DNA of 64,000 bases from Escherichia coli (GTDB taxonomy: Bacteria > Pseudomonadota > Gammaproteobacteria > Enterobacterales > Enterobacteriaceae). Positions 33,101 to 35,677 of the stretch are shown here, piece after piece. The position numbers are program-made. Positions within the stretch are counted from its first letter, which is position 1. Each line of letters starts with the position of its first letter. The DNA is taken from assembly GCF_003018255.1 (NCBI RefSeq), contig NZ_CP027440.1. One strand, written 5' to 3'.

Positions 33101-35677
33101 TGACATAAAGCAGGACGCCAACCGGCAGACCAATCACAAATCCAAAAAAACCGGATACGAAGGTCATTGCCAGCGTTTCCCATACGCCACGAACCAGCAG
33201 CCACATCATCGGCTCAGACATAACCCAGTACCTCTACTTTTACATGGTGTTCCTGCAGCCAGGTAATGGCGGCTTGCGTATCTTGTTGTGTGCCGTGCAT
33301 TTCAGTCAGCATGATGCCGAACTTAACGCCACCGGCGTAATCCATCTGCGCGCTAATAATGTTGTTGTTGACGTTGAAACGACGCGCGGTTTCAGAAAGC
33401 AGTGGGGCATCGACCGATTGACCGGTAAACTCCAGACGCAACATCGGCACGCAGTCAGTGAATGGCTCCGCTTGCAGACGTTCCTGGTAATCTTCCGGGA
33501 TATCCAGATGCAGGGTCGACTGAATAAACTTCTGCGCCAGCGGCGTTTTCGGATGCGAGAACACTTCACTTACCGTGTCCTGCTCGATCAGTTCGCCATT
33601 GCTGATGACCGCCACGCAATCACAAATACGCTTCACAACGTCCATTTCGTGGGTGATCAACAGAATCGTCAAACCCAGACGGCGGTTGATGTCTTTCAGC
33701 AGTTCGAGAATAGAACGTGTCGTTGCCGGATCCAGCGCGCTGGTGGCCTCATCACACAGCAATACTTTGGGATTGCTGGCTAACGCACGGGCAATCGCCA
33801 CACGCTGTTTCTGCCCACCGGAAAGATTCGACGGGTAGCTATCATGCTTATCGCCAAGACCAACCAATGACAGCAATTCCGTCACGCGACGTTTGATCTC
33901 ATCTTTCGGTGTGTTGTCCAGCTCCAGCGGCAGAGCCACGTTGCCAAAAACAGTACGCGAAGAGAGCAGGTTAAAATGCTGGAAAATCATACCAATCTGG
34001 CGGCGAGCTTTGGTCAACTCGGATTCTGACAGCGTGGTCAGTTCCTGGCCATCGACCAGCACGCTACCCTCGGTTGGGCGCTCCAGCAGGTTTACACAAC
34101 GTATAAGCGTACTCTTACCCGCGCCAGAGGCACCGATAACGCCATAAATTTGTCCAGCTGGCACATGCAGGCTGACGTTGTTCAACGCCTGGATGGTGCG
34201 GGTGCCCTGGTGGAACACTTTGGTGATATTCGAAAGTTTTATCATTGATTATTTATTATCGTCATTAAGTTAGTCGTGGCATTTCGAATGCCTGGAACGG
34301 GCAACGCCTTCAATGAAATGGATGTTAAGGCATCCAGACGTCTAAATCAATCAGGTTTATGCGAAGAGCACTTTCTTGCTGGTCGAAACATGCGATACTA
34401 GCGTCACATGCCTTATTAAGGAGCTATAAAAGGTGGCGAAGAGCGTACCCGCAATTTTTCTTGACCGTGATGGCACCATTAATGTCGATCACGGCTATGT
34501 CCATGAGATCGACAACTTTGAATTTATCGACGGTGTTATTGACGCCATGCGCGAGCTAAAAAAAATGGGCTTTGCGCTGGTGGTAGTAACCAACCAGTCT
34601 GGCATTGCTCGCGGTAAATTTACTGAAGCACAGTTTGAAACGCTGACCGAGTGGATGGACTGGTCGCTGGCGGACCGCGATGTCGATCTGGATGGTATCT
34701 ATTATTGCCCGCATCATCCGCAGGGTAGTGTTGAAGAGTTTCGCCAGGTCTGCGACTGCCGCAAACCACATCCGGGGATGCTTTTGTCAGCACGCGATTA
34801 TTTGCATATTGATATGGCCGCTTCTTATATGGTGGGCGATAAATTAGAAGATATGCAGGCAGCAGCTGCGGCGAACGTGGGAACAAAAGTGCTGGTGCGT
34901 ACGGGTAAACCTGTTACGCCTGAAGCAGAAAACGCGGCGGATTGGGTGTTAAATAGCCTGGCAGACCTGCCGCAAGCGATAAAAAAGCAGCAAAAACCGG
35001 CGTAATGATTAAAAGATGAGCGGTTGAAATAAAAATGCATTTTTCCGCTTGTCTTCCTGAGCCGACTCCCTATAATGCGCCTCCATCGACACGGCGGATG
35101 TGAATCGCTTCACACAAACAGCCGGTTCGGTTAAAGAGAAAAATCCTGAAATTCAGGGTTGACTCTGAAAGAGGAAAGCGTAATATACGCCACCTCGCGA
35201 CAGTGAGCTGAAAGCCGCGTCGCAACTGCTCTTTAACAATTTATCAGACAATCTGTGTGGGCACTCGAAGATACGGATTCTTAACGTCGCAAGACGAAAA
35301 ATGAATACCAAGTCTCAAGAGTGAACACGTAATTCATTACGAAGTTTAATTCTTTGAGCATCAAACTTTTAAATTGAAGAGTTTGATCATGGCTCAGATT
35401 GAACGCTGGCGGCAGGCCTAACACATGCAAGTCGAACGGTAACAGGAAACAGCTTGCTGTTTCGCTGACGAGTGGCGGACGGGTGAGTAATGTCTGGGAA
35501 ACTGCCTGATGGAGGGGGATAACTACTGGAAACGGTAGCTAATACCGCATAACGTCGCAAGACCAAAGAGGGGGACCTTCGGGCCTCTTGCCATCGGATG
35601 TGCCCAGATGGGATTAGCTAGTAGGTGGGGTAAAGGCTCACCTAGGCGACGATCCCTAGCTGGTCTGAGAGGATGAC

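Follow-up and report, generated by a model that had tools for sequence, protein, structure and literature searches.

The 187-bp spacer between the divergent genes metN and gmhB of E. coli almost certainly carries a metNIQ promoter that is repressed by MetJ through an operator of three met boxes, and next to it a separate promoter for gmhB. The operator is the already known MetJ site on the metN promoter; it is real, strongly conserved and ordinary. The evidence for it is carried by the tandem context of the boxes, by their position on a mapped promoter and by their conservation, and not by the perfect consensus octamer alone.

Genomic locus

We analysed a stretch of E. coli DNA of 64,000 nucleotides, here called the window. 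A piece of 501 bp around the metN/gmhB spacer is 100% identical to LF82 and to many other strains, and the same piece was found in 5424 of the 5426 complete E. coli genomes. Annotation coordinates of LF82 correspond one-to-one with those of the window, while in the metN/gmhB area K-12 coordinates are obtained by adding 188400 to the window position. The layout described by the sequence-only reading, with metN and gmhB on the minus and plus strands, respectively, and 187 bp between them, agrees with the annotation:

33214-34245, minus strand: metN coding sequence, ATPase subunit of the methionine ABC importer, first gene of metNIQ
34246-34432: divergent spacer, 187 bp
34433-35005, plus strand: gmhB coding sequence, heptose 1,7-bisphosphate phosphatase, GTG start

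In K-12 MG1655 the spacer is also 187 bp long and differs from that of the window by four substitutions, none of which falls in the met boxes or in core promoter elements. At 34309, corresponding to position +6 of the metN mRNA, the window has T and K-12 has G. This is the sole difference from K-12 within 34300-34365, a segment matched at ≥99% identity by only 91 of the 5424 E. coli genomes; the allele of the window in this segment (T at 34309) is a minority allele among E. coli.

Elsewhere in the window, the region of approximately 48741-64000 contains a type VI secretion cluster (hcp, tssM, tssA, vasI, tssH, tssK, tssJ, tagH and others). It is situated downstream of a tRNA-Asp gene (approximately 48741-48817), with one hypothetical gene between the two, and has the appearance of a tRNA-associated genomic island.

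The met-box array

MetJ is a ribbon-helix-helix dimer, one dimer occupying each 8-bp met box. Adjacent dimers contact each other cooperatively, with S-adenosylmethionine (SAM) as the co-repressor; a minimum of two adjacent boxes is required. The crystal structure of MetJ was reportedly described by Somers and Phillips in 1992.

We scanned the window using the MetJ information matrix published by Augustus & Spicer 2011 (PMC3228920, Table 3), together with their decision rule. The rule sets a minimum of a quarter of the consensus score for every box (3.145 bits) and of the full consensus score for the whole site (12.58 bits). The scan, which the sequence-only reading had proposed as the check on its met box, detected a tandem array that passes both thresholds, and this array is the sole qualifying one in the 64 kb:

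34320-34343: MetJ operator of three ungapped tandem 8-bp met boxes, reading AGACGTCT GGATGCCT TAACATCC on the metN strand, matrix total 20.43 bits
34336-34343: met box 1, perfect consensus AGACGTCT, 12.58 bits, farthest from metN, begins 1 bp past the -35 hexamer of metN
34328-34335: met box 2, AGGCATCC on the plus strand and GGATGCCT on the metN strand, 4.22 bits, within the promoter spacer
34320-34327: met box 3, GGATGTTA on the plus strand and TAACATCC on the metN strand, 3.63 bits, holds the -10 hexamer of metN

The single perfect octamer had been noticed correctly, as AGACGTCT occurs once in the window. The degenerate repeats said to flank it were placed only in part: two weak boxes do exist, but both are metN-proximal and there is none on the gmhB side. 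Singly, these two boxes are weak in relation to the per-box threshold, and box 3 barely exceeds it. No fourth met box was found, the next in-register octamer scoring -19.4 bits on the metN side and the in-register neighbours of the perfect box on the gmhB side scoring -9.9 and -17.2 bits. The array has the properties expected of a MetJ operator: at least two contiguous in-register boxes without spacing, scores above both the per-box and the total threshold, location on a methionine-transport promoter, conservation at orthologous genes and presence of metJ in the organism. The metJ gene itself lies outside the window and was found in 5425 of the 5426 complete E. coli genomes.

For calibration, the scan was applied to six operators already known in K-12, and it recovered all of them (metJ/metB at 31.18 bits, metF at 24.92, metA at 27.14, metC at 18.92, metR/metE at 21.06 and metK at 14.96), with no additional matches in approximately 25 kb. 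With the same matrix and thresholds, the operators of metA, metJ/metBL, metF, metC, metR/metE and metK likewise consist of tandem ungapped 8-bp boxes near AGACGTCT, and the 20.4 bits of metN fall inside their range of 15.0-31.2 bits. The operators differ in the number of boxes, with three at metN compared with four each at metA, metB/J and metF and two at metC. They also differ in composition: the metN array combines one perfect box with two weak ones instead of being built of several intermediate boxes.

The metN and gmhB promoters

The sequence-only reading held that both divergent promoters must sit in the spacer and proposed a comparison with mapped metN starts. Published start sites place both promoters there, and the array overlies the one that serves metN:

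34345-34350, minus strand: metN -35 hexamer TTGATT, separated from TAACAT by 17 bp and correctly spaced from the mapped start
34322-34327, minus strand: metN -10 hexamer TAACAT, inside met box 3, 7 nt to the +1 at 34314, conserved
34314, minus strand: metNIQ transcription start, A, equal to K-12 222714, from two independent data sets
34246-34314, minus strand: metN 5' UTR, 69 nt
34391-34399, plus strand: gmhB extended -10 promoter TGcGATACT, ends 6 nt before +1, nearly invariant in orthologous loci
34406, plus strand: gmhB transcription start, A, equal to K-12 222806, with a 5' UTR of 27 nt
34418-34423, plus strand: gmhB Shine-Dalgarno sequence AAGGAG, kept in ≥98% of 114 aligned sequences

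For metN, the supplement of Kim et al. 2012 (PMC3415461) places the start at 222714 on the minus strand, supported by 83 reads and leaving a leader of 69 nt; the upstream sequence given there ends with TTGATTTAGACGTCTGGATGCCTTAACATCCATTTCA. The supplement of the SMRT-Cappable-seq study (PMC6131387) gives 222714 for the b0199|b0198|b0197 operon. For gmhB (b0200), the same study lists a forward start at 222805, a coordinate that appears to be 0-based, and Cappable-seq (PMC4782308) a strong plus-strand start at 222806 with a score of 31.4. The distance between the two starts is 92 bp. The metN promoter has the form of a sigma-70 promoter, TTGATT-17 bp-TAACAT, with 8 of 12 consensus matches and the start at 34314, and the array spans its positions -29 to -6, that is the entire 17-bp spacer and the -10 hexamer. 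In the gmhB promoter, TGn directly precedes the -10 element and transcription starts at 34406.

A consensus promoter scan of 34100-34600 listed three sites, and neither mapped main promoter was among them, because the metN promoter has 8/12 matches (the cut-off being 9/12) and the gmhB promoter belongs to the extended -10 class. Among the sites listed, the promoter-like site at 34230-34259 on the plus strand was rejected, as the one start with which it coincides, at 34267, is weak in Cappable-seq, and the one at 34282-34255 on the minus strand is without a mapped start in the SMRT-Cappable-seq and Kim 2012 tables. The weak start (K-12 222667, window 34267) belongs to TCGAAA-18 bp-TATTAT in the 34230-34267 area of the plus strand; this motif overlaps the metN start codon, and transcription from the start runs toward the met boxes and gmhB, in antisense to the metN leader. 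At 34368-34376 on the plus strand, GCACTTTCT is moderately conserved at the place expected for the -35 element of the gmhB promoter and is a poor match to TTGACA; it could be a weak -35 element or a factor-binding site.

The SMRT-Cappable-seq table also contains internal starts on the minus strand at window 32608 and 32967 (K-12 221008 and 221367) that lead to metQ-only transcripts, as well as the read-through variants metNIQ-rcsF (window 31191-31595) and gmhB-rrsH (35370 onward). Transcription that continues from gmhB into the rrnH operon is unusual.

Conservation across Enterobacterales

To obtain orthologous loci, we searched species-representative genomes for a degenerate pattern covering metN codons 1-11 only, the operator not being selected on. 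The search returned 120 loci, and 115 of them were kept, those in which the encoded MetN shares at least 75% identity with the E. coli protein across its first 120 residues (or across fewer, if the sequence ended earlier). A qualifying array was present 72-85 bp from the ATG in 111 of the 115 orthologues, with three boxes in 78 and two boxes in 33. The remaining four retain the perfect box, and their box 2 is one base short of the threshold. Elsewhere in the orthologous loci the scan gave 5 arrays in 930 kb. A gmhB-like divergent neighbour was present in all 113 loci with enough upstream sequence.

Four elements are nearly invariant in the alignment: the -35 hexamer of metN, the array and, on the gmhB side, TGcGATACT and the Shine-Dalgarno sequence. 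The +1 region and the greater part of the metN leader are variable. Some other genera carry TTGACT as the metN -35 hexamer. Box 1 is nearly invariant, with the variants AGCCGTCT, GGACGTCT and AGACATCT, and box 2 reads GGATGCCT, AGACGCCT or AGATGCCT. In box 3 the third base varies among the aligned sequences: TAACATCC in 66, TACCATCC in 26, TAACATCT in 11, TAGCATCC in 10 and TAACATTT in one. Because the C and G variants (TACCATCC and TAGCATCC, 36 of the 114 aligned sequences) fall below the box threshold, the conservation of box 3 may partly be due to its function as the -10 hexamer and not to binding of MetJ; among the 115 orthologues, box 3 is sub-threshold in 33.

The mapped start of metN in Klebsiella pneumoniae (KPN_00213) is the same A, and the sequence from the -35 element through +1 (GATTGATTTAGACGTCTGGATGCCTTAACATCCATTTCA) is the same as in E. 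coli. The K. pneumoniae 5' UTR is 71 nt long compared with 69 nt in E. coli, and the sequence upstream of the -35 element differs.

Published evidence for MetJ repression

Table S1 of Augustus & Spicer 2011, BMC Genomics 12:558 (PMC3228920), lists b0199 metN with three boxes, 20.45 bits and a gap of 74 bp to the ATG. The 24-bp K-12 metN (b0199) site in that table, agacgtctggatgccttaacatcc, is identical to the operator in the window, so that the two operators show no difference. A lacZ fusion carrying 400 bp upstream of E. coli metN gave a MetJ repression ratio of 0.05, which equals 20-fold repression (PMC3228920), and in the survey of the same paper 121 of the 122 Enterobacterales species had met boxes at metNIQ. 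The operon belongs to the core MetJ regulon according to a second comparative study. MetJ repression of metNIQ, which the sequence-only reading had considered consistent with the octamer, is thus supported by the matrix scan, by the identical published site and by the repression ratio of the metN-lacZ fusion.

The metN leader and the question of a second promoter

Within the 69-nt metN leader, two blocks on the minus strand are conserved, GCCACGA at 34279-34273 (GCCACGG in most genera) and ACGATAATAAAT at 34262-34251. Both are kept across Enterobacterales and the rest of the leader is variable. We found no recognisable Shine-Dalgarno match in the leader, and no Rfam match in 34000-34700 in a scan at E-values up to 1. 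RNAalifold on 114 aligned metN leaders returned an empty consensus structure, and on the same grounds a leader hairpin of E. coli, GGCAUU/AAUGCC, was rejected as a conserved structure. In view of these blocks it is conceivable, though unlikely, that the leader carries an undescribed post-transcriptional control or translation-enhancer element besides the MetJ operator; the blocks could in that case be a small RNA site, a protein site or an S1-dependent A/U-rich enhancer. GcvB was rejected as a regulator acting on the metN leader, since the literature names metQ, not metN, as its target. In the literature, metQ (window 31713-32528) is a target of the GcvB small RNA via the seed region R1, verified in either E. 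coli or Salmonella, with conservation marked for the second of the two. This gives the operon a post-transcriptional layer downstream of its MetJ-controlled promoter.

The conserved blocks and the missing Shine-Dalgarno sequence would also be accounted for by a second metN promoter that is independent of MetJ. The candidate is ATGCCA-16 bp-GATAAT (minus strand, 34282-34255), and its transcript would be nearly leaderless. This site has 9 of 12 matches in the consensus scan, both of its hexamer regions fall in the conserved blocks and a spacing of 15-16 bp is kept across genera. However, 222714 is the only metN start in the Kim 2012 table and in the operon table of SMRT-Cappable-seq, with none near 222648, and the 20-fold repression of the 400-bp fragment allows little constitutive activity. 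We therefore consider a second promoter improbable and regard the MetJ-controlled promoter with its start at 34314 as the promoter of metNIQ.

MetJ and gmhB

Relative to the gmhB start, the array lies at -86 to -63, and gmhB is for this reason probably outside MetJ control. The proximity of 63-86 bp might be taken as a sign that the array is a shared bidirectional operator, at which MetJ also modulates gmhB and so links heptose and LPS core synthesis to methionine status. The divergence of metN and gmhB, kept in 113/113 orthologous loci, would fit such a role, and there is precedent at metJ/metB and metR/metE for MetJ sites that act on divergent genes. The array, however, overlaps no core promoter element of gmhB, the -10 element of which is at 34391-34399, and gmhB is without a met-box entry in the available part of the published Table S1 (PMC3228920). 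Our literature search found no link between gmhB and MetJ, the two being co-mentioned only by an unrelated silver-stress study. The Cappable-seq score of gmhB, taken irrespective of growth conditions, is moreover high (31.4). Taken with these observations a shared operator is very improbable, and the reading of a metNIQ operator beside an independent gmhB promoter is preferred.

Chance occurrence and the hairpin-like repeat

A lone AGACGTCT is expected 0.56 times per window and occurred at least once in 45 of 100 dinucleotide shuffles of the window, so the perfect octamer by itself is not beyond chance. A qualifying array of any score appeared in 49% of 1000 dinucleotide shuffles of the window, and boxes 2 and 3 clear the per-box threshold only narrowly. 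On these figures the octamer could be read as a chance palindrome without a regulatory role and its neighbours as over-read noise. The total score of the array argues against this: arrays of ≥20.43 bits were found in 0.3% of the window shuffles, and in 20,000 shuffles of the 187-bp spacer an array of any score appeared in 0.32% and one of ≥20.43 bits in none. Together with the position on a mapped promoter, the near-invariance in 111/115 orthologues and the published 20-fold repression by MetJ (PMC3228920), this leaves a chance palindrome with hardly any credit, and conservation and reporter data effectively refute it.

Equally negligible is the reading of the inverted repeat TGGATG-CCTTAA-CATCCA with its T-rich run (34336-34319, minus strand) as an intrinsic terminator or RNA hairpin: it was flagged in a terminator-like scan, but its symmetry is explained by the adjacent palindromic met boxes 2 and 3, and the repeat lies upstream of both mapped main starts and is therefore in neither the metN nor the gmhB transcript. 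We know of no upstream minus-strand transcript ending at approximately 34310.

Proposed control of metNIQ and its meaning

In the control that we propose, two back-to-back sigma-70 promoters share the spacer, the metNIQ promoter being overlaid from -29 to -6 by the three met boxes. When S-adenosylmethionine is plentiful, MetJ dimers would bind, one per box, and be stabilised by contacts between neighbours. We infer the order of binding: the perfect box beside the -35 hexamer would nucleate it, and cooperativity would then load the weak boxes over the promoter spacer and the -10 hexamer. Since the array covers -29 to -6 of the metN promoter, its geometry points to steric occlusion of RNA polymerase by MetJ; with the polymerase excluded, transcription of the methionine importer would fall approximately 20-fold. 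When methionine or SAM is scarce, MetJ would leave and the metNIQ promoter would fire. The gmhB gene is transcribed from an extended -10 promoter of its own, with +1 at 34406.

As a discovery the site has little weight, because site, regulator and phenotype are already in the literature and in regulon databases. It is useful as a positive control, being a real operator that was recognised from sequence alone. Should the conserved blocks of the metN leader prove to be a control element, they would constitute a second control layer on methionine uptake.
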